Shown: positions 1-26,245, numbered from the stretch's first letter. The stretch is 35,690 bases of DNA from an uncultured virus (IMG/VR IMGVR_UViG_3300025769_000078) (IMGVR_UViG_3300025769_000078), one strand, 5' to 3'. Program-made: numbers and translations. Notes: generated by a model from the letters alone, not told the origin.

Positions 1-2
1 GA

Positions 3-3000
3 CAGGTGCATACGCTTGAGGGTGGTTCACCGTTGGGTATCGTCATCAGAGCGTATAAACCTGCATCGACAAGATTGGCAAGCGGTCTACAACCAGTCCC
101 TGCAAACAGTGGCATACCTCCAAACTTTGAGATTCAATTACCTGACCCTGAATCCATTCCCGGTAACATCCTTGTTCGCAGTGGATTCGACCCAATACAG
201 GCATACCAAACAGAAACATTCGGTGACGGTGGTATGATTCACCCTGATTTGGGTGCAAGTCATATCGGTCATCTGTTTGACAACGTGGTCAAATCTCCAA
301 GAAAAGGGCCAACCATGAACGAAGTAGGATGGGAGCACATCTCACAAGACGAAAACTTCCCTGAGTCTACTCGTGACGGCTGGGTAGCAGCGACTGGTAA
401 CAACACACTACGCAGTTCTTACGAGCAACAGGACAGAGCGCTATACTTCCACATTACAAAGATGGGTCACAGCCATACTGAAAAATTCCCGACAACCTAC
501 ACTCACTCTGCTGGTGTGGTCAATCAAGCCCTTACCGTAGATTCCTACACTTCAACCTCAATTACAGCGAGCGCTGCTATCAACGAAAACATATTCTCTA
601 CTGGCTTTGGGACACAAGAAGTAGCCGATAACCGACGATTCATACGAATTAGCAACGCAGCAGGTGAGAGTGTTATCGCTTCGTATGAATCAATAAGTTC
701 AGATGTGTTTAACGACCTTGTTGGTGATATTGACTTCACTCAATTTATGGCTGATAATTTTGCTGTTGGTGCATTGACCATTACACCGTCATACTATGTC
801 CCTGCTGGTAGTGCTCGTATATTCGCTGCACGCCGACTGCGTGACCATGCCGAGGTAAGCGGTAACAGCCCTGACATGGCTCATACTCTCTACTTCGACG
901 GCGATGCTCAAACAACCATACACTCACGATACAGTAAGCCACAACTTACTCCAATGCCTATACCTCGTATGGGTCATCACTTCGTCAATGCAACAATGCC
1001 AATGATGCCGGGTCACTGGGCGCACCCAGCCTATCAAGGACTATACGAGAAAGCAAACAGCGACAAATTAGCGTTACTACCTGACGAAGATTATACGACA
1101 CTGGCTGACAACTTGGTCGAGGTAGACGGCACAACGAACAATCAGACTTCTATTCCTACAGCAGTTACAGACAGGATATTCCCACTCAACCCAGCGCTCA
1201 GAGTAGGTTCACTCACAGCCAACCCATCAGGCCCAAGCGACATTCACGGTGGTGCATTTACGTTGATGTTTGAGACGAAAATCAAGTATGACGGCTATGG
1301 TATACTCGCATCAAAAGGCACTGCTGGTGACATGAACAAGGCTGGTGGACACTCAATTGTCCTTGAGGCTGGTGGTAACTATACGCAGGCTAACCACTTC
1401 CCTGACCCTGCTGAAGTTGGTGCATATCAAATCGTTATCCAACCAAACCTACGCTCGCAACAGGTTACTGGATTCCATCGCAACAACGCTGATGCTACAG
1501 GTTTACCAACTGCTGGCACAGAACTATCGGGTCTTACCAGTCAGCAAGTCAATCTTGTTATCGGTATCAAATACGACGAAGAGCGACACTCAAGCCTGAC
1601 AGACAATGCTAACATCGGTGGTGTCACGCTTATTCTTGCTGAGGCTACGCTGGCTGACGTAAGAGGTTGTGAGATATTCTTGAACGAGGTCATCCTTGAC
1701 CACGACCCTGACCACGGTAGTCAGTTGGCTAACATTCCACCGATGTTGCTTTATAACCCATTGGGAGTTCAAGGGTCGGAGAGTCCTTCGTTTACACGGC
1801 GAGGTCATCCGTATCATCCAACAACTCCTGAGATAGAGTTCAAAGATGCTACACCGGGCTTTACCACGAACATACCGTGGTGGAGTATTATGCATCAAGG
1901 CACTCCGTCTGACGCATCGGCTGTTGGTTTCAGACATCTCGCTCTGTATCGTATCGACAACTACTACCAGTTCTGTCGAGCAAGTTACGGTGCAGTCGCT
2001 GCTCAATTGACATTGGCTGGCTATCCAAGCATTTATCCTGACATCTATTCCAAGATTATGGAGAACGTAAGCCTCGCTCCTACATGTAAGGTCGTTGGAG
2101 CACATTCTTCAGCGACTGCCATACAAGTTGATGATGCTTCCCTGTTCCCTGAAATACCGTATTACGGACAAAAACTGCAATACATTGACCCTTCTACGGG
2201 TAAAACTGTGTCGTTTAGTTACACAACTCGGCAAGGCTTGAGTCACAGTTCAGCGACGATGAATGAGCCTGATGTGTTCCATTTACCAACAGGAGTCACC
2301 ATAGCCGATGGCACAAAACTGACGTTGAGTAAACCGTATTCTACAAAATCTGTAAACGAGATTTTCAACAACGACAGCGAGAGTGTATTGACCAAAAATC
2401 TTGGTCAGTTGCTTACAGGAACGAGAGATACGAACAGTCTTTTCCTAACCGACGCATATCTGTGTGCTTGGAGTCCCAACTTGGGTCGGCCTCACACATT
2501 CTATTCAGATGCCAGCCGAACTTGGATTACAAACGGTGTCAATCACACCTCAGACAGAGCCGTTGATAACGCTGCATACAACAGTATGCCACAGCACTTT
2601 GAGACAATTCACTATCAAGATGTCAATTACGCAGCGAGTCATGGCCCACTTACGTTACGAATGAAAACACCAGTGCCTCCCAAGCCGCTTACTGGCACTG
2701 TCAGTTCGGTTGCGACTACAACTGTTACCGTTATCACAATGAGTGACACGGTTACTGGCGTAAGTAACGGAGATGTTTTGTTTGCTAAGGGTCGAGTTCT
2801 CGGTAGAGTAAACGGTGTTAGCGGTGCTGACATTACGCTCTACACCAAGATATTTGAGAGCAATCTTGTATCAGGCGATAAGGTTTATCTTGACGGTGAT
2901 GGCGAAGTCTTGAGTGGCTCAGACATCAATGCTATCAGTGGTTTATCACCTCAAAGTGGCACTTTTATGCTTTCAAACTACTGGCCGTGTGGTAGTCGTG

Positions 3001-5153
3001 GTGGCCCACTCGTTAGTCGATTAGATGGCTACGCTGCTGCTGCTGCTGCATGGCACTTACCGCAAAGTTACACACACAATGGTGGGATTCATTGGGAAGA
3101 CGATGATGATGGTAGTTATCCAACTGTTTCTAACGGTGTAAGCACTGGCTCACTCAGCGCTCTACGCACATATCCATTTGGTTATCGCTTTGGACTACGA
3201 CAGGCTTGGAACAGACCTCAGTGGGGTCACTATGGTATGCGAGCATTCCAAGAACAAGCCACTCACTCAGGTGCAAGCAATCTTGCTGTTGGCTACAAAG
3301 CAGGGCCACTGACTGAGTATGAGAGTATATCAAGTAACGGGTGGCTTTACGCTGGCGGAGACAGCACGCAAAGCAACACCAACCTACCAACTACCTACGT
3401 TGGTATTCTTGAGCGTAGCACAACGGCTGCTGGTATGTTGAATGCTGACAAATACGAATGGCAAGTGCGCTACAGCGATGGACGACGAATGACGAGAGGG
3501 TTTGGGTGTGCTTTACGCACTTTGCGAAACTCCAGCACAGTCATACGAGATTGGTGGGGCGATTCCGCTGGTATGGGAATGTTGTATTACAAAGACGCTG
3601 TATCGTATTATCTCATTGACTGGTGGGGTAACACTCGTGGTGAGGATGTCCGTCGCTTCCCAGTGCGAAGTTTTGGTATCAATCCGTCTTGGGATGCTGG
3701 AGACGCATACGAGTATGATAGGGTTAATGACCCCAGCCGCACACCATTTGAGCGAGTTTGGAACAATGGCAAGCCTATCTTCAATTTGAAGGGTATCGTT
3801 GATTTCAGCAACGGTAACGTGCTTTCATCTCCAACGGCCACGATACCTCGCTTTGGTGGTAGAAAGAACACTGGTAACAACAACACAGATACTACGTTGG
3901 TCGATGTGTTTGCTCCTACCAATGCGCTACGAGTAGGAGACATGGGTAACGGACGTGGTGTGCGATTCCCAACACAATTCAATGAAGACAGATTGGTTGA
4001 ACTCAGCGCAGTATACCAAAACTCAGGTGTGGTGTTATCAAGCAACACTGCTGAACCTACATTCGGTCAAGGTTTGATTCGACCAAGAAACGACGCACTA
4101 CAACCAAGTGAAATCGTCAGAGGTATCAGTGCTCGATTGGAGGTTGATGAAGATGGGTTGCTCAAACCTGAAGCAACGGTTAGCGACAAGGTAGAATCCA
4201 TTAGCGGAACATCGGTTCACAAGGATGCTGTTTCTCGCTCGTCACCACGAATCGGTATTGACGGAGACACCATAGAATCCTTGACTGGTAGCAACGCCAA
4301 CATGGTAGCCATCAACTCAGAAGCACACAGCCTACACACCAACAGAGGTGTGGGTCAGAGAGTTGTGTTGCATGGTGGTATGCAGTCAGGTTCTCAGACG
4401 CTTGGTGACTACGACTTGACATCCTTGTCCTTCGCTGCTCAGCCTCATGGTGGTGTAATGCGATTTAGTCACACGAGTAATTTCAAGCCTATGGGTGGGA
4501 CTTACATCTTAGAGGCTCGCAGTTTCGCCAGCCCATTCGATGATACAGGCTGGGGACGAAGTGGTATGAGTGGCACAAAGACAAGCAACCCATACCAAAC
4601 AACGAGTTCTGTAGCCAGTCAGACAAACATGACTGACGATGCAATTCAGTTTATGCTACGACCTATACGACTTCTTGACAACCAGCATATCGCTGTATTT
4701 AGACCAGCATTGGCTTTGCACACCGATAGTAAGCAAAACGGTAGCACTGCGTTTACAGCCACCGCTGGTGGTAAGTATGGGTTGTTTACTTACTCGACTC
4801 CAAACGGTAGAGCAAGCAGTGGGTCATACATGCGTGCTACCAACCCTGACACATCAGCACCATACCAACCAGTGTATCTCGTTGAAAGCAGTAGCGACAC
4901 TGTGCCAGTATCGAAAGGGCCAAAGTTACCGGGAACAGAGGTTACTGGCTTTGATAAGACAACACTGAAGAGCACTGTTACTCGACTTATCATCAGTGAA
5001 AACACACTACAGCACTTCAAGAGCGATGCTCCAAGAAGAACTGGTGAGAGTAAGGACTACACCGTCAAACCAAGATTCAGTCAATCGTTGCACAGCAAGG
5101 GACATAAAGAGGATGTATCGTTCAATACATCAGACCACAGTGGTGATGCATGA
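3..5153 (+). CDS. Very large virion/tail structural protein (5'-truncated, >1715 aa)
   Basis: ORF open from the window edge; rich in G/S/T/N/D; first of a translationally coupled + strand operon ending in a fibre-like gene; no enzyme motifs recognised. Confidence 0.6.
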   Translation, partial: QVHTLEGGSPLGIVIRAYKPASTRLASGLQPVPANSGIPPNFEIQLPDPESIPGNILVRSGFDPIQAYQTETFGDGGMIHPDLGASHIGHLFDNVVKSPRKGPTMNEVGWEHISQDENFPESTRDGWVAATGNNTLRSSYEQQDRALYFHITKMGHSHTEKFPTTYTHSAGVVNQALTVDSYTSTSITASAAINENIFSTGFGTQEVADNRRFIRISNAAGESVIASYESISSDVFNDLVGDIDFTQFMADNFAVGALTITPSYYVPAGSARIFAARRLRDHAEVSGNSPDMAHTLYFDGDAQTTIHSRYSKPQLTPMPIPRMGHHFVNATMPMMPGHWAHPAYQGLYEKANSDKLALLPDEDYTTLADNLVEVDGTTNNQTSIPTAVTDRIFPLNPALRVGSLTANPSGPSDIHGGAFTLMFETKIKYDGYGILASKGTAGDMNKAGGHSIVLEAGGNYTQANHFPDPAEVGAYQIVIQPNLRSQQVTGFHRNNADATGLPTAGTELSGLTSQQVNLVIGIKYDEERHSSLTDNANIGGVTLILAEATLADVRGCEIFLNEVILDHDPDHGSQLANIPPMLLYNPLGVQGSESPSFTRRGHPYHPTTPEIEFKDATPGFTTNIPWWSIMHQGTPSDASAVGFRHLALYRIDNYYQFCRASYGAVAAQLTLAGYPSIYPDIYSKIMENVSLAPTCKVVGAHSSATAIQVDDASLFPEIPYYGQKLQYIDPSTGKTVSFSYTTRQGLSHSSATMNEPDVFHLPTGVTIADGTKLTLSKPYSTKSVNEIFNNDSESVLTKNLGQLLTGTRDTNSLFLTDAYLCAWSPNLGRPHTFYSDASRTWITNGVNHTSDRAVDNAAYNSMPQHFETIHYQDVNYAASHGPLTLRMKTPVPPKPLTGTVSSVATTTVTVITMSDTVTGVSNGDVLFAKGRVLGRVNGVSGADITLYTKIFESNLVSGDKVYLDGDGEVLSGSDINAISGLSPQSGTFMLSNYWPCGSRGGPLVSRLDGYAAAAAAWHLPQSYTHNGGIHWEDDDDGSYPTVSNGVSTGSLSALRTYPFGYRFGLRQAWNRPQWGHYGMRAFQEQATHSGASNLAVGYKAGPLTEYESISSNGWLYAGGDSTQSNTNLPTTYVGILERSTTAAGMLNADKYEWQVRYSDGRRMTRGFGCALRTLRNSSTVIRDWWGDSAGMGMLYYKDAVSYYLIDWWGNTRGEDVRRFPVRSFGINPSWDAGDAYEYDRVNDPSRTPFERVWNNGKPIFNLKGIVDFSNGNVLSSPTATIPRFGGRKNTGNNNTDTTLVDVFAPTNALRVGDMGNGRGVRFPTQFNEDRLVELSAVYQNSGVVLSSNTAEPTFGQGLIRPRNDALQPSEIVRGISARLEVDEDGLLKPEATVSDKVESISGTSVHKDAVSRSSPRIGIDGDTIESLTGSNANMVAINSEAHSLHTNRGVGQRVVLHGGMQSGSQTLGDYDLTSLSFAAQPHGGVMRFSHTSNFKPMGGTYILEARSFASPFDDTGWGRSGMSGTKTSNPYQTTSSVASQTNMTDDAIQFMLRPIRLLDNQHIAVFRPALALHTDSKQNGSTAFTATAGGKYGLFTYSTPNGRASSGSYMRATNPDTSAPYQPVYLVESSSDTVPVSKGPKLPGTEVTGFDKTTLKSTVTRLIISENTLQHFKSDAPRRTGESKDYTVKPRFSQSLHSKGHKEDVSFNTSDHSGDA

Positions 5154-9444: not shown

Positions 9445-10976
9445 CACTCAGCACCTCTACGCCCGATGACATCATCAATGCGTAGGATAGCACATGAGAC
9501 TTCTGTTGCTCCGTTGATAGCACTGCGAATAAGCGATGTTGGTTCAAATACCCCCGTCATGCTACGCACGCCTCCATTTTCTACGTCAGGGCCATAGAAC
9601 TCAGGAAGTTTGTGTCGCATAGCCAAGACCGTATCAAGTGGGTCATAACCTGCGTTTTCAGCGATGGTAGCAGGGATGGCTTCAAGAGCATCAGCAAACG
9701 CTTCAATCGCCATTTGAGCACGCCCACCAACCTCAGAAGCGTTGGCACGCAAGTGAGCAGCGATGGCGACATATGTAGAGCCACCACCGAAGCGTATAGA
9801 GTCGCCGTTCTTGACCAGTGACACAACACCCAATGCGTCGTCAAACCCTCGCTGAATCTCATCGAGAGTGGATTGCGTAGCGCCCTTCAGTATCAGTGTG
9901 GATTCTCTGTGAGTAGTCATGCACTCCTTTGCTAATGAATTAACATACAGATACGGCACGTCGTTGTGAATAACACGGTCAATGTGACCTATGCCCGTTG
10001 TTGATGATGGCTCAGGAGTCATGTGGATTGGAGTGTTCATCAACTCATTTGACAGTCTACGCATTGTGCTCTCAGGCACACGTTGCACGATAGAGATACC
10101 TTGCTTGCGTAGATATGCAATCGCAGTATCATGCACTGCGTCACGACATAGCACAACACCAGCACCACTACTCACTACAGCCTTAGCCGCCTCAAGCAGT
10201 TTGTCTCGACCCATCGCTTGGACTTGGCTGTAGGAGTTTGCATCGGACACCTGAACAGATACGTTTGCGCTCTCTTTGCCTTCGGTCAAGCCACCATTGA
10301 GAAGTAGTATCTCCACGCCATCTTCGTTGTCCCAGTTACGAAACTCATCTCCACCACCGATGAAGTCTTTGTCAAGCACTACACCGTTGTAAAGCCACGA
10401 GTCAGCAAGAGAGCCACCGGGAACAGCGAGTGTCTTCACGTCACGAGCGTTTCCTATTGTCTCGATAGTCTCGACGCACAGGTTAGCAACCTTCTCTTCG
10501 GATGCTTCAAGCGACTTACCAGTGATAGCGGTTCTTGCTATTGCTCTGAGATATACACTCATATCATAATCTTCGTGCTTACCTACAGCGTCAGGCATTC
10601 CTTCTAAGCACTCAACAGCCATGTTTCGTGCTGTTGAGTAGCCCTTGATAATCACGTTAGGGTGCAAGCCCTTACTGAATAGACCCTCTGAGTTAGCGAG
10701 CAATTGACTCGCAAGAACGACTGTGCTTGTAGTGCCATCGTATGCGTTTGCTTCTTGCATCTTCGATACTTCTACCACCATCTTGGCGGCAGGGTGAGCA
10801 GTGTCTACTTCTCGTAGAATAGTAGCACCATCGTTGGTCACGATGACGTTACCACCACCATCCACCATCATCTTGTCCATACCCAATGGCCCAAGTGTCG
10901 TTCTTACAGTTTCAGCGATACGCTTGACTGCTTCAATGTTTAGCCTCTGTGTTGTATTGTTATCTGTCATATCCAA
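9444..10976 (-). CDS. ths: Group II chaperonin (thermosome-like)
   Basis: Motifs TLGPLGMDKM, TNDGATIL, DGTTS, GLHPNVII, FADALEAIP, ILRIDDVI; helical-protrusion region present. Confidence 0.95.
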   Translation of the reverse strand: MDMTDNNTTQRLNIEAVKRIAETVRTTLGPLGMDKMMVDGGGNVIVTNDGATILREVDTAHPAAKMVVEVSKMQEANAYDGTTSTVVLASQLLANSEGLFSKGLHPNVIIKGYSTARNMAVECLEGMPDAVGKHEDYDMSVYLRAIARTAITGKSLEASEEKVANLCVETIETIGNARDVKTLAVPGGSLADSWLYNGVVLDKDFIGGGDEFRNWDNEDGVEILLLNGGLTEGKESANVSVQVSDANSYSQVQAMGRDKLLEAAKAVVSSGAGVVLCRDAVHDTAIAYLRKQGISIVQRVPESTMRRLSNELMNTPIHMTPEPSSTTGIGHIDRVIHNDVPYLYVNSLAKECMTTHRESTLILKGATQSTLDEIQRGFDDALGVVSLVKNGDSIRFGGGSTYVAIAAHLRANASEVGGRAQMAIEAFADALEAIPATIAENAGYDPLDTVLAMRHKLPEFYGPDVENGGVRSMTGVFEPTSLIRSAINGATEVSCAILRIDDVIGRRGAE

Positions 10977-11584
10977 TCTACCTCAATTTCAACTATAGAG
11001 CCGTCGTCCATACTTCGGCTCTTTACAATACCATTGTCACGACCATACATGTAGAGGTCGTATGTCAATTGGCAGTCTTTGAGGCAGTAGTCGGCTACCT
11101 CAAGGAATTTACCTTCACGCCATGCCGTTGGTGCATCGCTACTTTGCATACTCTTCGATGAGTCGAGAGTAGAACGAACAAGAGTATCAAGCGTCGTGTG
11201 AACTTTACCCACACTCAATGCTGCTTTATCAACCAACATCTTGGTATCAATGATACTCTCGCTCTTACCAATCAGTTCACCTGCTGTCCAGCAGTCCAGT
11301 GCGGCGTTTAGCACTGGTAAGTCAAACTTGCGAATGTTGTGACCGAGAATCTTACCACCATTGTCAATGTGCTTCTGTAAGTGGTCGCCTAACGTGCGAG
11401 GATGTAGGTCATGCACTGTGGCATTAGCCATCTCTATGTCCTCTTTGGCGAAAACGTGACCGTCGTTGCCGTCCCATGTAGCGACGACTGTGGGTTCAAA
11501 CAAACTGTGTTTGTCCCAACCACCTATCTCCCAAGAGAAGTTGCCAGTTTCAATATCAAGTGCCATTACATCGCTCATACTCAT
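10967..11584 (-). CDS. DEDDy 3'-5' exonuclease (RNase H-like/DnaQ fold)
   Basis: ExoI 'LDIET', ExoII 'GHNIRKFDLPVL', ExoIII 'YCLKD'. Confidence 0.85.
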   Translation of the reverse strand: MSMSDVMALDIETGNFSWEIGGWDKHSLFEPTVVATWDGNDGHVFAKEDIEMANATVHDLHPRTLGDHLQKHIDNGGKILGHNIRKFDLPVLNAALDCWTAGELIGKSESIIDTKMLVDKAALSVGKVHTTLDTLVRSTLDSSKSMQSSDAPTAWREGKFLEVADYCLKDCQLTYDLYMYGRDNGIVKSRSMDDGSIVEIEVDWI

Positions 11585-15453: not shown

Positions 15454-15753
15454 TCAACCCTCTACGCTTTCTATGAGTGTGACTTGTTCTAACACTTTAC
15501 TGATAACATCGTCTAAGGTATCGCTGATGTGCTCCAACTTCATCCTTGATGGATGGATGATAATTTCAAAGAGTAAACTTGTCACGTCACCTATATCCTC
15601 ATGATAATTCTCAATCAAAATCCGTGATGTAGTGTGAACTTTAATTCGTTTTGAAAGAAGAGACGACTCAACTGTGAAATTGTAGGAAGGCCATATCTTG
15701 CTTAACGCCTTCTCCATGAGTTTACAGATTGCAAGAAGTCCTTCTCTATCCAT
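15454..15753 (-). CDS. Hypothetical protein (99 aa, visibly AT-richer than its neighbours)
   Basis: Fills the gap between primase and nuclease; GAGGCGA SD. Confidence 0.55.
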   Translation of the reverse strand: MDREGLLAICKLMEKALSKIWPSYNFTVESSLLSKRIKVHTTSRILIENYHEDIGDVTSLLFEIIIHPSRMKLEHISDTLDDVISKVLEQVTLIESVEG

Positions 15754-15762
15754 ACCGTCGCC

Positions 15763-16725
15763 TCACATGTCTTCAGGGTCAATAGCCAAGTCACCCATCC
15801 AAGCAGGGCATAGTTCCATGAAATCACACCAAGCGCACTTATTCTCGTGAGCCTCAGCAGGGAAGTCATCTTTCAGGTGAGCATCAACCAATCGCACGAG
15901 TCTCTTCTCTACGGTCTTAGGAGCGTAGCGACCACCCGGCCCTTTCACACTCTCGTAATCCCATAGAGGGCCGTCACCTCCGTTGATACCCCCACCGGGG
16001 AACTGCCAACCCCAGCCGATAACTGGTAGGTATTCGATGTGAGGGCTGTGCTCCAGCATCATACGGTAGAACTGCATCTCGGCACGCATCTGAGAGCGCT
16101 TACGCTCAACCCACTTACCAGTCTTCAACTCCATCAAGATGATACCAGTGTGGTCTTCGTCAATGAAGATACGGTCAATGTAACCCTTCATGTGAATCGG
16201 CACTTCCGTTCCGTCACTGGCTACTATGATTCGCTTTGAGTGAACTTCTACTTCATTAGCGATAGGAAACCAGTCTCTTGAGTTGTCTTGCATGTGTAAC
16301 AGCCGTTCAAACTGCCAGTCTACATACAGATTGAGTTGAGGCTCTTCACCAAAAACGTAGGGTGTAGGAGGCTTAGGTAGCGACTTACGCAACTCCTTCT
16401 TCGCTAAGTTGAGATTGCCTTCAGCGATGAGGTCGTTCACCGTTTGTAGGTTGTCAGATGAGGCTTTCCAAAAGTATTCAACTGCGTCGTGGACGTTAGA
16501 GCCACGAATGTGGTGGTCTACCTCTTCGCCCCTCATCCCCAGTATCTTCTCAAAGTAATACTGCTTCGGGCAAAAGTCGAATGTGCCGAGTGAGGATTTT
16601 GATATACGAAGTATCTTGTCAGTCATCTCAGGTTGCCAGTTGTATAGGCTCTTCTCGTATGACTCAAGCATCTCAGGATATTTGTATGGCTCATCCTCTT
16701 CTTCGTTAGGATTCCAGCGCATCAC
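15763..16725 (-). CDS. Cas4/AddB-like PD-(D/E)XK exonuclease with Fe-S cluster
   Basis: 'SKSSL...CPKQYY', 'GSNVH', 'GYIDRI', 'ELKTG', 'QMRAEMQFY', C-terminal CAWCDFMELC. Confidence 0.88.
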   Translation of the reverse strand: MMRWNPNEEEDEPYKYPEMLESYEKSLYNWQPEMTDKILRISKSSLGTFDFCPKQYYFEKILGMRGEEVDHHIRGSNVHDAVEYFWKASSDNLQTVNDLIAEGNLNLAKKELRKSLPKPPTPYVFGEEPQLNLYVDWQFERLLHMQDNSRDWFPIANEVEVHSKRIIVASDGTEVPIHMKGYIDRIFIDEDHTGIILMELKTGKWVERKRSQMRAEMQFYRMMLEHSPHIEYLPVIGWGWQFPGGGINGGDGPLWDYESVKGPGGRYAPKTVEKRLVRLVDAHLKDDFPAEAHENKCAWCDFMELCPAWMGDLAIDPEDM

Positions 16726-17093
16726 TTGTCATCTCCGAATTTATTGTATCGTGCTTGAGGGACGTAGTAACGTGACTTCAACTTGTCAAGTCCTGAGTCC
16801 TTGTATGCCTCATCTGTTTCCTCGTCATCCATTGTCAGGCGCAAGAGAATGAAGTAACCAATCAGGTCTTCAATCACGTCAATGTCAGACTCGATGGTGT
16901 CGCTTCCACGCATGAGTCTACTGAGTTTGTCATCAATCCTGACTCTTAAGCCAGCATCGGGAGGAAGGTCGCTGAAGAAACGGATAGGGTCAAAGGCACT
17001 GTCACCATACTGAGCGTTCTTCTCAGCGAGTAGGTTCACTACCTTACCTGCAATCTTGGCACACTTGATTTTGAAAGTCTCTTCTTCAGTCAT
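16722..17093 (-). CDS. DUF1599 / nucleotide-modification-associated domain 1 (Nmad1) protein
   Basis: 'KNAQYGDS...RIDDKLSRL...DLIGY' signature. Confidence 0.75.
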   Translation of the reverse strand: MTEEETFKIKCAKIAGKVVNLLAEKNAQYGDSAFDPIRFFSDLPPDAGLRVRIDDKLSRLMRGSDTIESDIDVIEDLIGYFILLRLTMDDEETDEAYKDSGLDKLKSRYYVPQARYNKFGDDK

Positions 17094-17233
17094 TCTTCCT
17101 CACCAACCTCATCTTTACTGTTCCTTTTTATATCAACTTCAAACGTCATTCCAAACTCAGTGAGTTTGGTTTGTCTTCGTCCATCAGTTGTCAGTCCGTA
17201 TTCGTCCAGTGTTGTTTGTCTTGTCTTTTTCAT
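17090..17233 (-). CDS. 47-aa peptide with two PIP boxes (QTTLDEY, QTKLTEF), in frame with PolB
   Basis: Hand translation MKKTRQTTLDEYGLTTDGRRQTKLTEFGMTFEVDIKRNSKDEVGEEE; GAGGTGA SD; ATGA overlap with the next gene. Confidence 0.7.
   Translation of the reverse strand: MKKTRQTTLDEYGLTTDGRRQTKLTEFGMTFEVDIKRNSKDEVGEEE
17116..17138 (-). promoter_or_regulatory. Conserved viral promoter motif copy 2 (AGTTGATATAAAAAGGAACAGTA)
   Basis: One mismatch to copy 1; upstream of the DUF1599-nuclease-primase-ERCC4 genes. Confidence 0.75.
17151..17169. repeat. Perfect 9-bp inverted repeat CCAAACTCA-G-TGAGTTTGG
   Basis: Read directly; lies 12 bp upstream of promoter copy 2. Confidence 0.6.
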
Positions 17234-17242
17234 TTTGTCACC

Positions 17243-19651
17243 TCAAAAATATGACTTTGGCATTGTCGCTCCCGAAGCAGCATCAAGCGCCCAGTCAAGG
17301 CTCTCGTAGATTCGCATGAGTTTAGATTTAACCATCACACTGAGCACTTTGTCCCAGTCTATGGCGTAGTTCTCCAACTCCGCTTTATCACGGAAAGCAA
17401 CGAAGTCTACCTTCTTTCGCTCTCCTTTGAGTGTGTAGTAGTCAGGCACGTCATTGTTGAAGCCCTTGACATAAATCCATGATACACTGTCGCCTTTGTT
17501 CCATCGCTCTTCAGCATTGGTGGCAACGTGTTGATTGTAATACATGGCGGCTTTGGCTGGTGCGGGTAGGCTCTTGTAGTCCTTGAAGTCCATCGTCAAT
17601 CGAGACGAGCAAGCCACGTCCTCAATCGGTATCTCACCGTTCTTGACTTGGAGGCTTATCTCCCTCAGCACGTCAGTAACAGCCGTTTCATCAGCACCAG
17701 TGCCTATCATTTGCATGGCTACTTGTTGAATGTGCTTGGTCAAACGTGAAGAACTGGAGGCTTTGATTTCATAACCAGCAATCTTCATCTCACCTTTGCT
17801 CTTCTCAGGCCACACCTTGATGCCGAAGTAACGATTCTTCACTGGCGCAGTCGTCCAGTAATCGAAGTAAGCCTCAAGTTCAACTTCCATTGTTGGTAAC
17901 TCAAGTTTGTCCTTAGCAGTCTTGGTCAAGTGCTCTGCAAGCGATGTCGCTTTATCAAATGGAACTTGGATGAAGGCTGAATCTGTGTGACCATAGAGTG
18001 ATTTGTAACCTTGCTCTTCGCTTTCAGTCAGTAGGTGGTGAATACACTCACGCCCTCTGTGTGTGATAGCGGCGGCTATATCGTTGTCAATCCACATACC
18101 TTGTAGGGCTTTCATCCCAGTCATACCGTAGAGTGCATTGACGAGAACCTTCGCCGCTGTTTGCATCATGTCGTAACCGAGTTTCTCATCAGGGTCTGTA
18201 GTCTCACGCATAAGTCTCTTGTATTCAGCACGCAGTTCAAGCATCTCTTCTACGATAGCAGGGAGTAAACCTTTCTCCTTTTGACACCAGTGTGAGCCAT
18301 CGCCCAGTGTCTTGGTAGTCTCTGTAGGTTGGTCACGCTTAGTAAGGTAACATAAATTGTCAGAGAGAATGATGTTAGGATAGAGAGAAGCATAGTCCAC
18401 AATGGCTACGCCTTCGTGACGACCCGGTATAGGGTCGGGAATGTGGGCGGCAGTGAGTTGTTCACGTCGGTTGTTGATAGCACTCTTGGCTTTCTTGTCC
18501 GTCCTTCTACCAACAAGCCCTCTGAAGTATCGAGTGACTTTGTGTGTGCTCGCCCACGAGACACCACACAACTGCTGAGTAGCAACGAAGAAGTCAATGG
18601 CGTTGAGTTTCTTGTCGATGTCACGCAGTAACGTAGTATCGAGGAGACAGTAATCTACGAACTCACTCCAGTATTCATACCAACCATTGTGAACGGTCAT
18701 GCCCTCAATCTCTTCTGTCAGTTTACTGCCAAGTTCAAGCAACTCCGCTATAGTATTCAACTTGCGGTTAGGTAGTTGTCCACGTCCTGACTTTTGCCAT
18801 AGCGATTCAAAGCCACTACCACTCTTCCAGTGAGCCGCTGAGTCCCAACACAACCTACCCTTGATGGGCTGTTGAGTGTCCTTGTAGCCATCTCTACCTT
18901 TGAATGGTCGAATCACTTGACCGAGTGGTGAGAGTTGGTCAGGGTCTTTCAGTCTACGCATCAGGTGTGGTAAGTCAGCCCACATGATAGCATGGGCTAC
19001 GAGAATGTCAGGGTCACGCTTGTGTAAGAATTTGATGAAGGCTTCATGCATCTCCGCTTCGGAAGGGTAGATTTGCAGTATGTATTCTTCATCACGCACC
19101 TTCATGTGTCTCGCACTTACGATGTGTGTTGGATGAGGACAGTTGGTTCTTTCCTCATCAGCCCATGCAAAGACATGCGGAATATCAAGGTCGCTGTCTA
19201 CAACAGCCATGACGGATGTGAAGTCATCTTTGGTGTCCCACTCCAAATCAAAATACCACACTCGTGGCTTGAACTCAGGTAACTTCTCAGGATAGAGTTG
19301 CAGTAGCACTTGGTCGAGATAATTCAAGTCTGCTTCATAAGTAGGCATCTCATCTTTGATGTCCCATAGGTCAGTAGGTCTGTCCACTTCGACCTTCATA
19401 AGTGGGGTTTTGTCGATACCAGTGGCACGAATACTCCGATGAATCTGAGCACTGGGGTATCGAGCCATCATACGATTGAGTTTCCACTCAGGTGTGTTCA
19501 CTGGAATCCAGCAGTGTGGTTTCACATACCTCTCGTCTTCAGGCCATATGTGCTCTTCGTGCAGTATGCCTTCCTTGTCACGAGTCCGTAGGTAGAGATT
19601 GGGTTGTCCGAAGTTGTCAGACTCAGCAGGGTAATACCAGTCGATAATCAT
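17243..19651 (-). CDS. polB: Family B DNA polymerase (802 aa, no intein)
   Basis: ExoI FDLE, ExoIII YCLLD, motif A DYASLYP, motif B KVLVNALYG, motif C YGHTDS, KNRY. Confidence 0.96.
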   Translation of the reverse strand: MIIDWYYPAESDNFGQPNLYLRTRDKEGILHEEHIWPEDERYVKPHCWIPVNTPEWKLNRMMARYPSAQIHRSIRATGIDKTPLMKVEVDRPTDLWDIKDEMPTYEADLNYLDQVLLQLYPEKLPEFKPRVWYFDLEWDTKDDFTSVMAVVDSDLDIPHVFAWADEERTNCPHPTHIVSARHMKVRDEEYILQIYPSEAEMHEAFIKFLHKRDPDILVAHAIMWADLPHLMRRLKDPDQLSPLGQVIRPFKGRDGYKDTQQPIKGRLCWDSAAHWKSGSGFESLWQKSGRGQLPNRKLNTIAELLELGSKLTEEIEGMTVHNGWYEYWSEFVDYCLLDTTLLRDIDKKLNAIDFFVATQQLCGVSWASTHKVTRYFRGLVGRRTDKKAKSAINNRREQLTAAHIPDPIPGRHEGVAIVDYASLYPNIILSDNLCYLTKRDQPTETTKTLGDGSHWCQKEKGLLPAIVEEMLELRAEYKRLMRETTDPDEKLGYDMMQTAAKVLVNALYGMTGMKALQGMWIDNDIAAAITHRGRECIHHLLTESEEQGYKSLYGHTDSAFIQVPFDKATSLAEHLTKTAKDKLELPTMEVELEAYFDYWTTAPVKNRYFGIKVWPEKSKGEMKIAGYEIKASSSSRLTKHIQQVAMQMIGTGADETAVTDVLREISLQVKNGEIPIEDVACSSRLTMDFKDYKSLPAPAKAAMYYNQHVATNAEERWNKGDSVSWIYVKGFNNDVPDYYTLKGERKKVDFVAFRDKAELENYAIDWDKVLSVMVKSKLMRIYESLDWALDAASGATMPKSYF

Positions 19652-19655
19652 TCAA

Positions 19656-20408
19656 TCACGCTCGTTGGTCTACGATAACAAGTAGGTCATCATCTTTCTC
19701 AAGAGCGATGATAGTCGCTTCGCCTATGTGTATGGTGGCCTCACCACCACCGAGTAGAGCGATGCTGTCCATTAACCACGAGCCGTATGTAGAACTCACG
19801 CTACCAGTGACCGGGCCAGTAGAATCACGCAACTCAAGCGTAGTGAACAACTTGGTTTCGTGTCTCTTGCCCGATGATATGAGGAACTCATTCTCACTGG
19901 GATTGGCTGTAATCTTGAAGATAGGACTGCTGTTGAGAATGCCTCGCATCTTCGATACAGTAGCCAACTCATCCAGTGTGATGACTCCTGATACACTCAG
20001 GTCGCACGAGTGAAACTTTGTCCACTCACTGGCTTCAGCCTCCTCAATCAACTTCTCAAACAGTGAAGCCTTAGCCGCACTGACGATTGTAGAAGACGTA
20101 GGCATTGAAATCTTGGATGACCCACATGTGATGTTCAGTGTCTTGGCTGAGCCTGTCTGTGAGATGCTCACGACATCATCCTTCGCCGCCTTGAGGAACT
20201 GACGAACCTTGACCAGTTCAGTGATGTCAAGGTTACCATTTTCTTTCACCTCTCCGTCTACTTCTCTTGTCTTCGTTATGTAGTGGGAGATGAAAGCAAC
20301 TGATGCTGTCATGGATTTGTCATCGAAGTGTATTCGCAAGTCCTCTGCCTTGCCGAACTCCGATAGGAAGCCCAACAACTGTTTTCTGTTTATGTTTAGT
20401 TTCGTCAT
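19656..20408 (-). CDS. Probable divergent PCNA-type sliding clamp (250 aa)
   Basis: PCNA-like length and alpha/beta alternation; adjacent to polB, with RFC and PIP-box peptide in the same module; little motif identity. Confidence 0.55.
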   Translation of the reverse strand: MTKLNINRKQLLGFLSEFGKAEDLRIHFDDKSMTASVAFISHYITKTREVDGEVKENGNLDITELVKVRQFLKAAKDDVVSISQTGSAKTLNITCGSSKISMPTSSTIVSAAKASLFEKLIEEAEASEWTKFHSCDLSVSGVITLDELATVSKMRGILNSSPIFKITANPSENEFLISSGKRHETKLFTTLELRDSTGPVTGSVSSTYGSWLMDSIALLGGGEATIHIGEATIIALEKDDDLLVIVDQRA

Positions 20409-20421
20409 AGTATCACCTCAA

Positions 20422-20533
20422 GGTGGGGGGAAATTCAGTGGAGGAGGAAAGTATAACCCCCTAACGGAAAGAACAGGTGTTTCGGCCCACCTGCGCCCCA
20501 AAGAGTCCTGAATTTTTACCCCGTAAACCCCCA
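20422..20533 (-). ncRNA. Putative structured intergenic RNA / cis-regulatory element
   Basis: G/C-run-rich gap; closing stem aaattcag (20431-38)/ctgaattt (20508-15) flanked by G/C runs; inner hairpin caggtg (20474-79)/cacctg (20488-93). Confidence 0.4.
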
Positions 20534-20539
20534 TGAGTA

Positions 20540-21552: not shown

Positions 21553-22899
21553 TCAGTTAAATTGACCCTCGCCAGTATCTCCACCAGTCTGTCGTCGTCG
21601 GATGCGTCGAGCATCAGCAAAGACACCCATCACCTTGAGGCTTGGGATGTCCTTACCGTCTTTGCGCTTGACTGCAATACGACCACACACCAATACTGTG
21701 GAGCGCTCCGCATAAGGAATAGTCTCGTCGTCTGTTCGTGCAACGAAAGGAGCAGTCAAATCGTTACAAGCACTACCGACCCAACACATAACATCAGCGG
21801 CATCGCTACTACCATGTGCGCTCTGAAGAGCAGTGGAAGTGAGAGTGATTGAGTAACCTCGTCCATCTTCGTCATACTGATTGTCACGAGGCTCAGTGGA
21901 CATACGGTTCACTGTTCCCTTCGTGAAGACGATAGGGCCACTGCGACCTTGCTCACCGTTGATGGTGAAGGTGCGACTACCTGACTCAAACGCTTCAACC
22001 AACTCATCGAGTGGAACGAAGTGGGGGTGAAGTTCATTGTCTGTCCAAAACTTGAATGGTCGGAGTAGAGCACGCATGTTCTCATTGACGAACTCATCTG
22101 TGTATTCGATGGCTTTGGATGTTCCCATGCTGGTAGACAAGACATCCTTGAATCCTTCAGCGGCCTTCTCGCTTGGTGGTCGTGCCATGATACGACATGG
22201 CTCACCAATAAGAACTTCAGCGTCAGCGTCTTCGCCTTGCATGTCAAGTCTCCATAGTTGAATAGCACCATCGTTGGTGAACTCATCTTCAGGAGCACCC
22301 AAAAAGTGGTAGTTGCGACCATTCATCGACATGGCCTTTGGTCGCCCACTCTTAGCGAGCAAACAGATACGCTCGCCGTCAGCGATGAATGAGTTCTCAG
22401 GGACTTCATCCACAGGTATCTCTGTGAGTGCAGTGCCGTTGTTGGTAGATAACGACCATTGAGTTTGTCCGTTTTGTTTGATGTAGTGTCCAACCATACC
22501 GCTACCAATAGCGTTGTTGGGGTCGAGTGTGAAGTCACGCTTAGCACGAGCAACGAGGTTGCTTCGACGGTCACGTCGCTTGTCATCGACACCGACAAAG
22601 CATCCAACGAATGGAACAGACCCGGCCATAGGTGCGCCACCGCCACCAATGTTTCGTGTCTCAATGAACATCTGTTCAGCCCAGTCGATGAGCAAGTCCT
22701 CATCTTCTTGGCTTGGGTCAGTGCATCCATGCTCCTTGCTGATTTGCTCAAGGAAGTCTGCAACTACCTTTTGGATGTCTTGTTTTGTGCGAGTAGCGTA
22801 TTGCTCCAGTCGCTCAAGCACACCTTCGGGTAGGCTACTGCTTACCGCTACGGCATGGTCGTCTTCGTTTTGTTCGTTATCTTCGTATTCTTCAGTCAT
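21553..22899 (-). CDS. Putative RPA-like ssDNA-binding protein (448 aa)
   Basis: GGAGGT SD and ATGA overlap at 22899; acidic; helical N-terminus then OB-like strands ('TKGTVNRM', 'VLVCGRI', 'LKVMGVF'); position between RFC and the recombinase. Confidence 0.45.
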   Translation of the reverse strand: MTEEYEDNEQNEDDHAVAVSSSLPEGVLERLEQYATRTKQDIQKVVADFLEQISKEHGCTDPSQEDEDLLIDWAEQMFIETRNIGGGGAPMAGSVPFVGCFVGVDDKRRDRRSNLVARAKRDFTLDPNNAIGSGMVGHYIKQNGQTQWSLSTNNGTALTEIPVDEVPENSFIADGERICLLAKSGRPKAMSMNGRNYHFLGAPEDEFTNDGAIQLWRLDMQGEDADAEVLIGEPCRIMARPPSEKAAEGFKDVLSTSMGTSKAIEYTDEFVNENMRALLRPFKFWTDNELHPHFVPLDELVEAFESGSRTFTINGEQGRSGPIVFTKGTVNRMSTEPRDNQYDEDGRGYSITLTSTALQSAHGSSDAADVMCWVGSACNDLTAPFVARTDDETIPYAERSTVLVCGRIAVKRKDGKDIPSLKVMGVFADARRIRRRQTGGDTGEGQFN

Positions 22900-23849
22900 G
22901 ATAATACCTCCTTTCGTAGTCGTGCCACAAGGCAATCAACAAAGGAATGTGAACCGATAGGCCATTCATACATGTGGGGAATCATCTCTCCCAGCACACC
23001 CATGACTGTCCATGTGTTGTCTTCGTCCATCTCAAAGAACTCGGTTAGGTTCTCATGGAATGTTCGCATGACGAAGGTAAGTGAAAGCCCTCGGTCAAGC
23101 ATGGAATAGAGTTGCTTACGCATGTCGCCATACTCACCAGCGATAGCGGCAAGTGCGGCCTGTGATGGGTTGCCCCCATCGGATAGTCTCTCATGTAGAG
23201 CAACAAGAGGAGCGTCACCATGACTCTCCATGATAGCGATAGCGCTACGCATGTCGCCACCAGTGAACTTCATAAGTAGCATGAATGTGTTATTCCAAGC
23301 GCTGAGTGTTACGCTGTCACCAACCCAACTCAAGTGTCCTTTGAATAAATCAACAAGCCTCTTAGCCCCATCTTCAGGACTGATAGGCTTGAACTCATAC
23401 ACAAGACACCTGCTTTGAATAGCAGGTTTGATTTTGCTAATCTCGTTGCATGTGAAGATGTAGAAGACGTTCTCAGCATACTCTTCCATGATGCCTCTCA
23501 GTGCATCCTGAGCCGCTGGGGTGAGGCCGTCAGCCTCGTCTACAATGATGCCTCTCCTGTCAGTGCCTACAGCCTTGACAGCGCTCATCTGTTTGAGTTG
23601 GTTACGAATGTAGTCAAGCCCTCTGTCGTCTGAGGCATTGACAATGATGTAGTTCATGGGGTCAAAGAAGTCACCCATCTTCTCACGGAGCATGACCTTC
23701 GCCGCAGTGGACTTGCCAGTGCCTTGCATACCGTGGAGGAGAACAGCACGAGGCCACGAACCTGAGTCACGCCAGCCCATAGCGTCGGAGACAAAGGCAG
23801 TCTGACCTGCTATGTCCTCCAAGGTCTGTGGTTCTGTGCTGTTCTCCAT
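22896..23849 (-). CDS. rfcS: Replication factor C small subunit (clamp loader)
   Basis: PQTLEDIAGQ, GMQGTGKS, NASDDRG, IVDEADGLT, AQDALR, FIFTCN, AIQSRC, GDMRSAI; start at ATG 23849 (or 23858). Confidence 0.93.
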   Translation of the reverse strand: MENSTEPQTLEDIAGQTAFVSDAMGWRDSGSWPRAVLLHGMQGTGKSTAAKVMLREKMGDFFDPMNYIIVNASDDRGLDYIRNQLKQMSAVKAVGTDRRGIIVDEADGLTPAAQDALRGIMEEYAENVFYIFTCNEISKIKPAIQSRCLVYEFKPISPEDGAKRLVDLFKGHLSWVGDSVTLSAWNNTFMLLMKFTGGDMRSAIAIMESHGDAPLVALHERLSDGGNPSQAALAAIAGEYGDMRKQLYSMLDRGLSLTFVMRTFHENLTEFFEMDEDNTWTVMGVLGEMIPHMYEWPIGSHSFVDCLVARLRKEVLS

Positions 23850-23861
23850 GAATATCATCTC

Positions 23862-23884
23862 TACTATTCCTTTATATATCAACT
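23862..23884 (-). promoter_or_regulatory. Conserved viral promoter motif copy 3 (AGTTGATATATAAAGGAATAGTA)
   Basis: TATA box ends 21 nt before ATG 23849; heads the RFC-RPA-recombinase-clamp-PolB genes. Confidence 0.8.
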
Positions 23885-24343
23885 TCAAATTGGCTCTTCC
23901 ATTGTTCCTTCAAACATAATTGACTTGTGCTCAGCATCGTATGCCTCAGCCCACGCCGCAAGGGTGCTACCATAGTCCGAAGGCATTGGATTTTGCCAAA
24001 CCCACACCCACATGTGGTAGCCTACCTTGTCAGCGAAGGCGCTGTGTATTGGGTATTCTCTATTGATGGTATTTAGAAGAAGTCGTAGTCTCTTCTGTGA
24101 TATGATAGATGTAAAACCATCTATAGGAAACTCGTGAGCGAGGAAGTCTCCGATACCCAGCACCTTTTGAATGTAAGGTAAGAGACTCGGTGGTGGAGGG
24201 TTACGCCATACAACAGAGCGTCTGAGTCTATATCCCGCCTTTGCTTGTGAGTCTTTACTTACATAGGTATTGAACTTGAGTTGGCCGAGCATGTAGCCTA
24301 AGCCGATACCGAATCCTGTCTTGTCATTTGTTTGCATCGTCAT
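23885..24343 (-). CDS. Hypothetical protein, possibly a degenerate LAGLIDADG-fold DNA-binding protein
   Basis: 'LGYMLGQLKFNTYVSKDSQAKAGYRLRRSVVW' echoes the LAGLIDADG helix plus beta-hairpin without the acidic residue. Confidence 0.5.
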   Translation of the reverse strand: MTMQTNDKTGFGIGLGYMLGQLKFNTYVSKDSQAKAGYRLRRSVVWRNPPPPSLLPYIQKVLGIGDFLAHEFPIDGFTSIISQKRLRLLLNTINREYPIHSAFADKVGYHMWVWVWQNPMPSDYGSTLAAWAEAYDAEHKSIMFEGTMEEPI

Positions 24344-24657: not shown

Positions 24658-25910
24658 TCTACACCACTCCTTGCTAACAGTTCGACATACTGAGTCACGT
24701 CTTTGATACCCAAGTCAGCCCTCAGTTTGATGACCGTCCAGTCGTATAGAAAGAGAGAGTGGTTTCTGATACCAACTTGCACTGCCGCTATCTCAGCCAC
24801 AGCACACTCGATGTCCAGTGGGTTCTGTAACTCTTCAGGAAGAGGATGTGCGTCTGTTACACATACAACATCATCAATACCATCAAGCGCCCCCAACAAA
24901 TACTCACCTCCAGTCAAGTATTCTATTTTCAAGAAGACCTTAGTTCGGTCAGCGTGCATCACATAACCACCAATAGCATCGGGCTTGAACTCTTGAGAGG
25001 GTTTGATAAGTCGAATACAACTCACATCAGGTGACTGCAATCTACGAACAATGTCATCCCAATCGCTGTCAGTGGACATGTAGCCACTCCCATGCTCACC
25101 CTCCACACGAGTTGCAAAAGTCTCAAGGGGTGAATGTTTTTTCACTCTGTCTATGATTGTCTCAACACCGCTATCGGGACATCGCACTGCTTCATAGAGA
25201 TAGTTGGCACTGTAACCATGTTTACCTATCCTTCGTCCCATCCTGTCTCGCACGACATGGTTGTGAAGATATACGATGTCACCTTTGGGAACAACTACAG
25301 CCAAGTGATTCTCTTCAGGGGGAGCGAGTGAAGTATATGCTTTCCATCGCATAGGTGAAGGAAACCAATCATACTCAGTCCATCGTTTGTTTGCTCTGAG
25401 GCTCTCTTTGTCTCTGAACAATTTGACGATGGTTGTTGAAGTCATGTTGCGTGTCACGACTTCGTGAGGCACTGCATGAATACGAGCGAGCGCTCCAAAG
25501 AATGCTCTCTTCGTTATAACTGGCTTGTCTCTAAGACACCATCGCCAAAGCAGTCGTGCTTCCTTCTCGTTGAATTTGTGCGCCACCTCTGTGAAAGTCG
25601 TGGCTGATTGGAGTAGTGCTTCGACATAAGCGAGGTCGAAGTCTCGTGAGCCTGAGTTCGCACTCTCAGATGCAAGAGTCATCCATGCCTCTTCTTCGGG
25701 TAACATATCCTTGACCACATCGTAAAACGATGTTGCTTCATAAGTGATGAGTTTGAATGGGTCAGTCCTATACGGTAATTGGTCGATGTAGAACAGACGA
25801 TGAAGAGCCAGTGTGTCCTCAAGTTTTTCCAGCCGAGCCAGTTGCTTGACTGGTGATTCACCTAAGCGTAGTTGCTCATGTATGTCAGCGAGTAATGCAA
25901 ACTTCGTCAT
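24654..25910 (-). CDS. ATP-dependent DNA ligase-like protein, catalytic motifs degenerate
   Basis: DBD-like 'EKEARLLWRWCLRD', 'PSPM'; motif I reads VPKGDI instead of KxDGxR; collinear remnants of motifs III-V; OB-like C-terminus. Confidence 0.55.
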   Translation of the reverse strand: MTKFALLADIHEQLRLGESPVKQLARLEKLEDTLALHRLFYIDQLPYRTDPFKLITYEATSFYDVVKDMLPEEEAWMTLASESANSGSRDFDLAYVEALLQSATTFTEVAHKFNEKEARLLWRWCLRDKPVITKRAFFGALARIHAVPHEVVTRNMTSTTIVKLFRDKESLRANKRWTEYDWFPSPMRWKAYTSLAPPEENHLAVVVPKGDIVYLHNHVVRDRMGRRIGKHGYSANYLYEAVRCPDSGVETIIDRVKKHSPLETFATRVEGEHGSGYMSTDSDWDDIVRRLQSPDVSCIRLIKPSQEFKPDAIGGYVMHADRTKVFLKIEYLTGGEYLLGALDGIDDVVCVTDAHPLPEELQNPLDIECAVAEIAAVQVGIRNHSLFLYDWTVIKLRADLGIKDVTQYVELLARSGVE

Positions 25911-26245
25911 AGCCATGCCTCAATCAAATCTGTAAAATCGCTCTGCCAACCGTTGGGTCGTGGTTGTGTACCTACTCCGAATATCTGAAACGTCAGGTCA
26001 CGAACCTTGATGGCGCTGGTCTTGATGCCTCTACGCTTAGCGCATAGGTAGATGCAATCAACCATCAACCCATGTGGGCTTCGTTGGTTCATCCATCTAT
26101 CATCACCTGCTACCTTGATTGACAGAGCCTTAGCGGAAGCATACTCGCCTCCCTTCAAGCCCATAGCCAACGCCAGTTCCATGCCTCTGTCTACACCAGC
26201 ATGTGTCTCTACTGTGCGAGCCAGTATCTCTGCTTTGTCACTCAT
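25907..26245 (-). CDS. Single cyclin-fold TFB/TFIIB-like protein (112 aa)
   Basis: 'QRSPHGLMVDCIYLCAKRRGIKTSAIKVRDL' matches the TFB repeat pattern GRSPxxxAAAxxYxAxRxxxxxxTxxEI. Confidence 0.6.
   Translation of the reverse strand: MSDKAEILARTVETHAGVDRGMELALAMGLKGGEYASAKALSIKVAGDDRWMNQRSPHGLMVDCIYLCAKRRGIKTSAIKVRDLTFQIFGVGTQPRPNGWQSDFTDLIEAWL

Follow-up and report, generated by a model that had tools for sequence, protein, structure and literature searches.

A conserved tandem PIP-box-like micro-protein encoded behind the DNA polymerase gene of magrovirus-like marine viruses: a possible free peptide plug for a PCNA-type clamp

Directly behind the family B DNA polymerase gene (polB) of the uncultured virus IMGVR_UViG_3300025769_000078, in a stretch of 35,690 nucleotides (nt) that was analysed as a whole and is called the window here, lies a micro-gene whose product carries two sequences resembling the PCNA-interacting protein (PIP) box. 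The micro-gene is a conserved protein-coding gene, separately initiated. The favoured, though tentative, reading is that its product, made together with the viral polymerase, acts as a free peptide that plugs the pocket of a PCNA-type clamp in trans, with host PCNA as the likelier target. That the peptide would bind any clamp, which clamp it would choose and that it would compete there are proposals drawn from sequence and analogy. PIP boxes are known as enzyme tags; in the widespread ocean viruses considered here the tag stands by itself, in tandem copies, and makes up a conserved micro-protein encoded beside the polymerase and clamp genes.

The original prediction, made from the sequence of the window, had described a 47-residue open reading frame (ORF) in the frame of polB, with the repeats RQTTLDEYG and RQTKLTEFG and a Shine-Dalgarno sequence of its own overlapping the polB stop, and each of these details is borne out by the sequence (Table 1). 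Three codons (GDK) separate the polB TGA from the ATG of the micro-gene. The heptamer that serves as its Shine-Dalgarno sequence also precedes six of the 38 ORF starts examined in the window, that of the clamp gene included; in relatives this position is taken by GGTGA or GGAGG. At the other end, the micro-gene's TGA overlaps the start codon of the following gene in the bases ATGA (17093..17090). The peptide is ordered as motif 1, motif 2, MTFE and an acidic end, VGEEE; the ribosome site of the next gene, GGTGAGGAAG, encodes VGEEE, so that the overlap accounts for this tail at least in part. Among the ORFs of at least 30 residues on both strands of the window, only the micro-ORF holds two Qxx[LIMV]xx[FYW] motifs. 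Comparison of the peptide with Pfam (E <= 0.01), PHROGs and the ESM Atlas gave no family match. The codons for KLTEF in motif 2, about 75 nt past the polB stop, coincide with a hairpin at 17151-17169 (-) that has a perfect 8-bp stem and a 3-nt loop (CCAAACTC ACT GAGTTTGG).

A scan of viral contigs with PolB yielded 80 loci (PolB identity 40-100%), 70 of them usable (nine end before the end of polB and one has less than 150 nt beyond it). When these related contigs were checked for the ORF, it was found directly after polB at 30 of the 70, as a frame of 25-72 residues starting -7 to +16 nt from the polB stop and bearing two motif copies in 27 cases and one in three. The 30 loci make up two PolB clades, one of 81-100% identity (tail ...PKSYF/I) and one of 43-48% (tail ...YGWW). 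At the other 40 loci the micro-gene is missing, as it is from two complete genomes that do contain polB and the clamp gene, G009 (completeness 100%) and G010 (98%).

Where the gene is kept, its motif residues are preserved through synonymous change. Across 19 distinct DNA sequences Q is written as CAA 26 times and as CAG 12 times, E as GAA 15 times and as GAG 19 times, L as CTG, CTC, CTT, TTG or TTA (two codon families), and T with all four of its codons. On this substitution pattern and the conservation in relatives, a spurious ORF was rejected. A profile search of 1.84 billion representative proteins gave 47 matches at E <= 0.001, about 30 of them further micro-proteins of 28-111 residues, and the set of 45 distinct micro-proteins, 18 locus sequences included, has one motif in six members, two in 35 and three in four. 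The strict form of the motif, Q[TSA]x[LI]x[EDQ][FYW], occurs four times in the six frames of G005 (also recorded as L002), a relative whose 107-kb genome is complete and whose PolB is 98% identical, twice inside the micro-ORF, and on average 1.4 times in shuffled versions of that genome.

In the review by MacNeill (PMC4929162, in excerpt) the PIP box is defined as QxxhxxaA, with a 3-10 helix after the Q, and the archaeal consensus peptide is given as KTTQSTLDSFFK. The unit consensus of the 45 micro-proteins, R-Q-T-[TK]-L-[DTE]-E-[FWY]-[G/I/M], is nearly invariant at Q1, L/I4 and aromatic 7, the defining positions of that pattern. Both copies in the window have the glutamine (Q6, Q21), an aliphatic residue at position 4 (L9, L24) and an aromatic residue at position 7 (Y12, F27), and the predicted pair of PIP-box-like motifs is therefore indeed encoded. 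Across the family the glutamine is present in 100% of units, by construction of the regular expression; position 4 is L in 89% and I in 11%, and position 7 is F in 44%, W in 38% and Y in 18%. In alignment A2, Q6 of motif 1 is invariant, as are Q21, T22 and E26 of motif 2, which is the better conserved copy and the one to which the single-motif relatives align.

The shortest family members, of 25-30 residues, consist of the motifs and nothing else. Among the 45 micro-proteins the distance from Q to Q ranges over 13-28 residues and the copy number from one to three, variability that is expected of linear motifs and not of a folded repeat. An AlphaFold2 (AF2) model of the peptide, built on a 37-sequence alignment, shows no fold (predicted template-modelling score, pTM, 0.33) and has helical turns only at residues 10-12 and 24-27, within motifs 1 and 2. 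The peptide is predicted to be intrinsically disordered, and the model agrees with the combination of disorder and a helical turn that is typical of the PIP class.

Table 1. Features of the window discussed in the text
Feature	Coordinates	Strand	Remarks
Micro-gene	17090..17233	-	47 codons + TGA; ATG at 17233, last base 17090; product is the two-motif peptide
PIP-like motif 1	17195..17221	-	RQTTLDEYG, residues 5-13
PIP-like motif 2 with extension	17138..17176	-	RQTKLTEFG-MTFE, residues 20-32 (RQTKLTEFG, residues 20-28)
Shine-Dalgarno sequence of micro-gene	17238..17244	-	GAGGTGA; overlaps polB stop, 4 nt upstream of ATG
Family B DNA polymerase (polB)	17243..19651	-	802 residues; Pfam DNA_pol_B, E 1.1e-45
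Next gene	16722..17093	-	123 residues, phrog_1485; ATG overlaps micro-gene TGA; ribosome site GGTGAGGAAG
Virus-encoded sliding clamp	19656..20408	-	250 residues, PCNA fold (AF2 and Foldseek)
RFC-like clamp-loader ATPase	22896..23888	-	Pfam AAA, DNA_pol3_delta2
99-residue protein	15454-15753	-	Unknown function; homologous to L008 ORF (E 4e-22)

The clamp that the virus itself encodes is highly divergent. Its sequence has no match in Pfam or PHROGs, including PCNA_N and PCNA_C, and no sequence match in the PDB at E <= 10. The earlier proposal of a divergent clamp is nevertheless supported at the level of predicted structure: an AF2 model built with 32 homologues scored 92.5 for predicted local distance difference (pLDDT) and 0.88 for pTM, and its top Foldseek matches are archaeal PCNAs (1iz5_A, E 2.8e-12, TM 0.65), with the two-domain beta-alpha-beta architecture. 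A homologue of the clamp gene stands upstream of polB in 78 of the 80 loci. An hhalign comparison of the viral clamp with host PCNA gave a probability of 0.85%, which is not significant. Elsewhere the window, whose G+C content is about 47%, encodes a group II chaperonin (Cpn60_TCP1, E 1.2e-119), a primase-like protein and nucleases of the ERCC4 and PD-(D/E)XK types, and its gene set matches that of the magroviruses (Magrovirales), tailed viruses of Poseidoniales, as these are described in the ICTV profile (PMC10768690) and by Philosof et al. (PMC5434244). Between the gene for a 333-residue protein and the clamp gene lies a 131-nt intergenic stretch (20409-20539) in which runs of G precede pyrimidine runs (...ggggtttacgggg...cctcctcc...cccccacc); no Rfam family matches it, and it is possibly a promoter or an RNA element.

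The C-terminus of the viral polymerase bears on how it would reach such a clamp. PolB of the window ends ...ATMPKSYF, followed by TGA, and the claim that it is without a Q-led PIP box holds both for the window and for its relatives, none of 65 PolB homologues having Qxx[LIMV]xx[FYW] in the last 60 residues. The idea that PolB simply ends there calls for qualification, as the tail is itself conserved: most of the 65 end in P-[KR]-x-[YH]-[FW]-COOH, in ...YGWW (some loci) or in ...EW, and a few in short acidic extensions. The closest cultured relative of the polymerase, the PolB of halovirus HF1 (23% identity), ends ...GQSQTGLAAFC, and in a six-sequence alignment its fused PIP box, QTGLAAF, occupies the same columns as the magrovirus tail. 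Since the columns are shared, the magrovirus tail looks like a derived clamp-docking tail and not a truncation, in an arrangement like that of T4 gp43. HF1 differs in having a PIP box that is single and in cis; its genome gave no match to PCNA_N or to the magrovirus clamp profile in a test at the sequence level, and the 55-residue ORF after its polB has no such motif.

In phage T4 the peptide at the extreme C-terminus of gp43 binds the gp45 clamp, by a motif that small proteins also employ (PMC6212786, in excerpt). Magrovirus PolBs group with the T4-like/B5 PolBs (PMC7544198, in excerpt), and among the clamp-binding tails of T4 and RB69 (gp43, gp33, the ligase loop) the gp43 type would be the likely equivalent of the magrovirus aromatic tail. 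A difference is that the T4 and RB69 motifs sit on functional proteins; the excerpted text of PMC6212786 describes no free tandem-motif peptide.

In the proposed mechanism, the micro-gene is independent and translationally coupled to polB, and the only conserved parts of its product are the two PIP-type motifs, R-Q-T-[TK]-L-x-E-[FWY]. One motif would occupy the hydrophobic pocket in which a PCNA-type clamp docks its clients and would compete with them, and the second copy would add avidity by rebinding. A linker of 5-8 residues is probably too short, given the geometry of PCNA, for two pockets of one ring, in which case the second copy would serve for rebinding avidity or for a second ring. 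If host (Poseidoniales) PCNA is the target, the peptide would displace host PolB, FEN1 and RNase HII, while the viral PolB would work on its own divergent clamp through its non-canonical C-terminal aromatic tail. What inclines the choice towards host PCNA is that motif 2 varies hardly at all between clades with clamps of just 21-27% identity, together with the lack of detectable likeness between the viral clamp and host PCNA. Possible, if doubtful, is the fuller picture of an orthogonal magrovirus replisome, wherein the viral clamp would read only the aromatic tail of PolB and the freed tandem PIP micro-protein would poison host PCNA.

Host sequences for comparison came from three Poseidoniales metagenome-assembled genomes, reached via the chaperonin, and in all three the client tails are NRQSSLFSF in PolB, GGQPTLFEF in FEN1 and AQRTLF in RNase HII. 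The viral motif has R-Q-[ST]-[ST]-L and aromatic 7 in common with the host PolB tail and E6 in common with the FEN1 tail; the PolB and FEN1 tails stop at position 7. To archaeal PCNA clients generally (PolB, FEN1, RFC-L and RNase HII, from the excerpted PMC4929162) it is alike in Q1, L4, aromatic 7 and a basic residue before the Q, as well as in the acidic residues within the motif and the helical turn after the Q. Unlike these tails, the motif of the micro-protein is unattached to an enzyme and constitutes the whole protein, in one to three copies.

The eukaryotic regulator p21(Cip1) has a flank beyond its PIP box that adds contacts to PCNA, and an analogous gain is conceivable for the conserved G[ML]TF[ED] stretch that follows motif 2. 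The likeness to p21 lies in a disordered peptide whose PIP motif would compete with clients for the PCNA site; the unlikeness is that p21 has a single PIP box within a larger regulator, whereas the viral peptide is tandem and without homology to p21. According to the review excerpt (PMC4929162), p21 is the replication inhibitor in which the PIP motif was first found. The same source describes the Thermococcales inhibitor of PCNA (TIP), a 64-residue protein that binds PCNA and in vitro blocks the stimulation of PolB and Fen1 by PCNA. Like the micro-protein, TIP is very small, and this archaeal protein has a putative N-terminal PIP motif (PMC4929162, in excerpt); unlike the micro-protein, TIP is cellular, has a PH-like half-domain and occurs in Thermococcales only, and it did not turn up as a relative in searches that included no direct comparison with it.

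Several considerations weigh against host PCNA as the target, or against the motif as a fully canonical PIP box. The argument for a host target draws on absences and on analogy. Position 8, a second aromatic or hydrophobic residue in the PIP class, is Gly in both window copies, and it is G in 59%, I in 11% and M in 8% of units across the family, in which canonical forms do occur (QTTLDEFF in P0095; QTTLEEFL at the extreme C-terminus in L022; FM in L022 and L030). Position 5 is polar in the viral motif and Phe in the LFxF tails of the host, which makes the peptide an inexact mimic. Coupling to polB beside the clamp gene fits a role in the viral replisome at least as well as an anti-host role, and the presence of the motif on other small proteins of the replication module in relatives could mean that the viral clamp does read it. 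To these is added a resemblance to DUF7487 repeats, which is taken up below.

It is conceivable, if rather unlikely, that the same free PIP peptide would be aimed at the viral clamp, as a regulator or placeholder and not an anti-host weapon, for example by occupying free pockets, by timing the hand-off between PolB and further viral clients, or by helping loading and unloading. The gene is part of the polB-clamp-RFC module and its translation is coupled to that of polB, relatives bear the motif on other small replication-module proteins, and few host replication factors are thought to be needed by magroviruses (ICTV profile, PMC10768690). On the other side, no recognisable viral enzyme of the complete genome G005 uses the motif, PolB has a different tail, whole clades with the same clamp and PolB are without the micro-gene, and clamp identity falls to 21-27% with no change in the motif. 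A search for PIP-tagged enzymes with the strict motif found none in the complete genomes G005, G006, G007, G009 and G010 or in the 74%-complete G008. In G005 the strict motif appears in coding context only in the micro-gene and in none of the 93 ORFs of at least 90 residues. The sole loose C-terminal PIP-like candidate in G005, G007 and G008 is a 427-residue ORF of unknown function (G005 9510-10793), which ends ...GMEDFI and has QRSLDDYL 15 residues before its end.

The small proteins that do bear the motif are of two kinds. Just upstream of the clamp gene in L011 (2044-2247) and L014 (1999-2241) is an ORF of 67-80 residues, CxxC zinc-ribbon-like, with RQSTLDEFF or RQSTLGEFG; this clade has no micro-gene after polB, and where the zinc-ribbon ORF sits the window has its 131-nt non-coding gap. 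ORFs of about 100 residues with the motif occur in the replication module of L008, L011, L017, L020, L024 and L069. The L008 homologue of the 99-residue window protein (Table 1) and the aligned ORFs of L011 and L017 have the internal PIP-like sequences SQTSLLEYF, RQTTLDDFF and RQTTLDEFF, of which the window copy has lost the Gln (TSRILIENY), and the ORFs at the same place in L020, L024 and L069 end in RQTTLREYF or QTTLDEWF. Should the zinc-ribbon and ~100-residue proteins bind the viral clamp, that clamp would instead be the place of the peptide's competition.

Two further proposals would link the peptide physically to PolB. As a split tether or adaptor, it would bind the viral PolB non-covalently, supply a PIP box in trans and bridge to the viral or the host clamp. 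This is improbable. Its position and coupling would give roughly 1:1 co-synthesis with PolB, host PolB and HF1 PolB have a C-terminal PIP box in cis, and two copies could in principle serve different partners; the minimal members of 25-30 residues, however, are motif-only and three of 30 loci are single-motif, with no obvious second surface for bridging. The PolB C-terminus, moreover, is complete, conserved and aligned with the HF1 PIP box, and the micro-gene is absent at 40 of 70 loci and from two complete genomes having polB and the clamp. Natural fusions of the peptide to PolB, which had been foreseen as a check, were looked for and not found among the 65 PolB homologues, and a word-based search among longer proteins was likewise empty, which is weak evidence. 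The split clamp tether of the original prediction is weakened by these findings. Taken together, the conserved PolB tail, the motif-only minimal members, the absence of the micro-gene at many loci and the small number of PIP-tagged viral ORFs argue against a tether and favour a free peptide.

A different kind of alternative makes the motif a short repeat of the DUF7487 type, with another function such as nucleic-acid binding, and not a PIP box. The micro-protein profile also drew about 14 DUF7487 repeat proteins (E 5e-10 to 7e-4), whose units agree with the window motif in Q1, T2, L4, aromatic 7 and G8 and in being hydrophobic at position 9. Even so this origin of the motif is quite improbable: even with E <= 10 allowed, none of 18 micro-proteins matches the family hidden Markov model, PF24308, E occupies position 6 in 85% of micro-protein units as against R/K in 93% of DUF7487 units, and the regular period with K/R6 and Y7 is not seen in the micro-proteins, whose spacing varies over 13-28 residues as against a fixed 23 or 19 (23 in 59 cases and 19 in 12). 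The peptide is also without a predicted fold, many micro-proteins resemble client PIP boxes in placing the motif at the extreme C-terminus, with one of F, L, I and M as residue 8, and the significant E-values arise from summing many repeats. In the DUF7487 proteins themselves (P0073, P0077, P0083, P0094, P0096, P0104 and others) KQTNLERYGVE repeats of 19 or 23 residues stand in tandem, and one long repeat protein of this type has a weak, sub-threshold match to Phage_endo_I.

Expression by read-through of the polB stop was the other form in which PolB and the peptide had been predicted to be joined. The reading frame relative to polB is 0 at seven of the 30 loci, +1 at 15 and +2 at eight; the polB stop is TGA at 21 and TAA at nine, one of the nine being the frame-0 relative L007. 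Rfam gave nothing at gathering scores over the whole window; its one match around the junction, to an lncRNA at E 0.22, fell far short of the gathering score. The 141-nt junction has no significant fold (z -1.86), an equally good one arising in 10 of 200 shuffles. Although the window and six relatives have the ORF in the polB frame behind the stop, with only three codons between, the frames +1 and +2 in 23 of 30 relatives, the use of either stop, a strong and conserved ribosome site and ATG after polB (often ...TGG TGG TGA TAA A ATG), the lack of an Rfam element and the insignificant local fold make a PolB isoform that carries both PIP motifs as a C-terminal tail, from read-through or other recoding, scarcely credible. 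Read-through is not a conserved expression mode of the micro-gene and would be at most a minor event in the clade of the window.

A stand-alone PIP micro-protein was not found described, in the literature searched, for magroviruses or for other archaeal viruses; in the magrovirus papers, as excerpted (PMC5434244 and PMC7544198 among them), 'PIP' occurs only within 'pipeline' or 'piped' or in 'piPolB'. Magroviruses infect very abundant marine Poseidoniales. If host PCNA is plugged, the peptide would represent a new device by which archaeal viruses take over their hosts, as well as a minimal PCNA inhibitor of natural origin; if host PCNA is poisoned, host replication and repair would be shut down by what would be the first virus-encoded inhibitor of an archaeal PCNA, an analogue of the phage peptides aimed at the bacterial beta clamp. 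If it is the viral clamp that is plugged, the peptide would be a new kind of replisome regulator. Under either reading it is a 47-residue reagent open to chemical synthesis, and the micro-gene illustrates a function overlooked by gene callers below about 50 codons.

Other observations concern C-terminal tails and neighbouring genes. Tails made of a small or acidic residue followed by W/F and L/I occur among replication-module products, in the window in a 205-residue PolB-exo-like protein (...EIEVDWI; 10967-11584 (-)) and a 112-residue protein (...LIEAWL; 25907-26245 (-)), and tails of the [DA][WF][LI] type may be a second, virus-specific C-terminal docking tail. As a shared virus-specific signature, [DA][WF][LI] was rejected: it is found in three G005 products, two of them also in the window, PolB ends SYF, and the enrichment is too weak. 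In L036 and L042-L080, whose PolB clade ends ...RPATYW, polB is followed by a coiled-coil-like ORF of about 75 residues, heptad-like and rich in E, K and L, that has no PIP-like motif and ends ...ELQEELQR[AL].P[DE]LY.INKIHA. At positions 1-5153 (+) the window holds a giant ORF of 1,716 residues with an open 5' end, whose counterpart in G005 (42930-60860) has 5,976 residues and takes up about 17% of the 107-kb genome. Finally, the chaperonin encoded on the 31-kb contig L081 (NZQM01000043.1, titled as a Parvibaculum sp. metagenome-assembled genome and binned with an alphaproteobacterium) is 80% identical to that of the window; the contig probably belongs to a magrovirus and was mis-binned.

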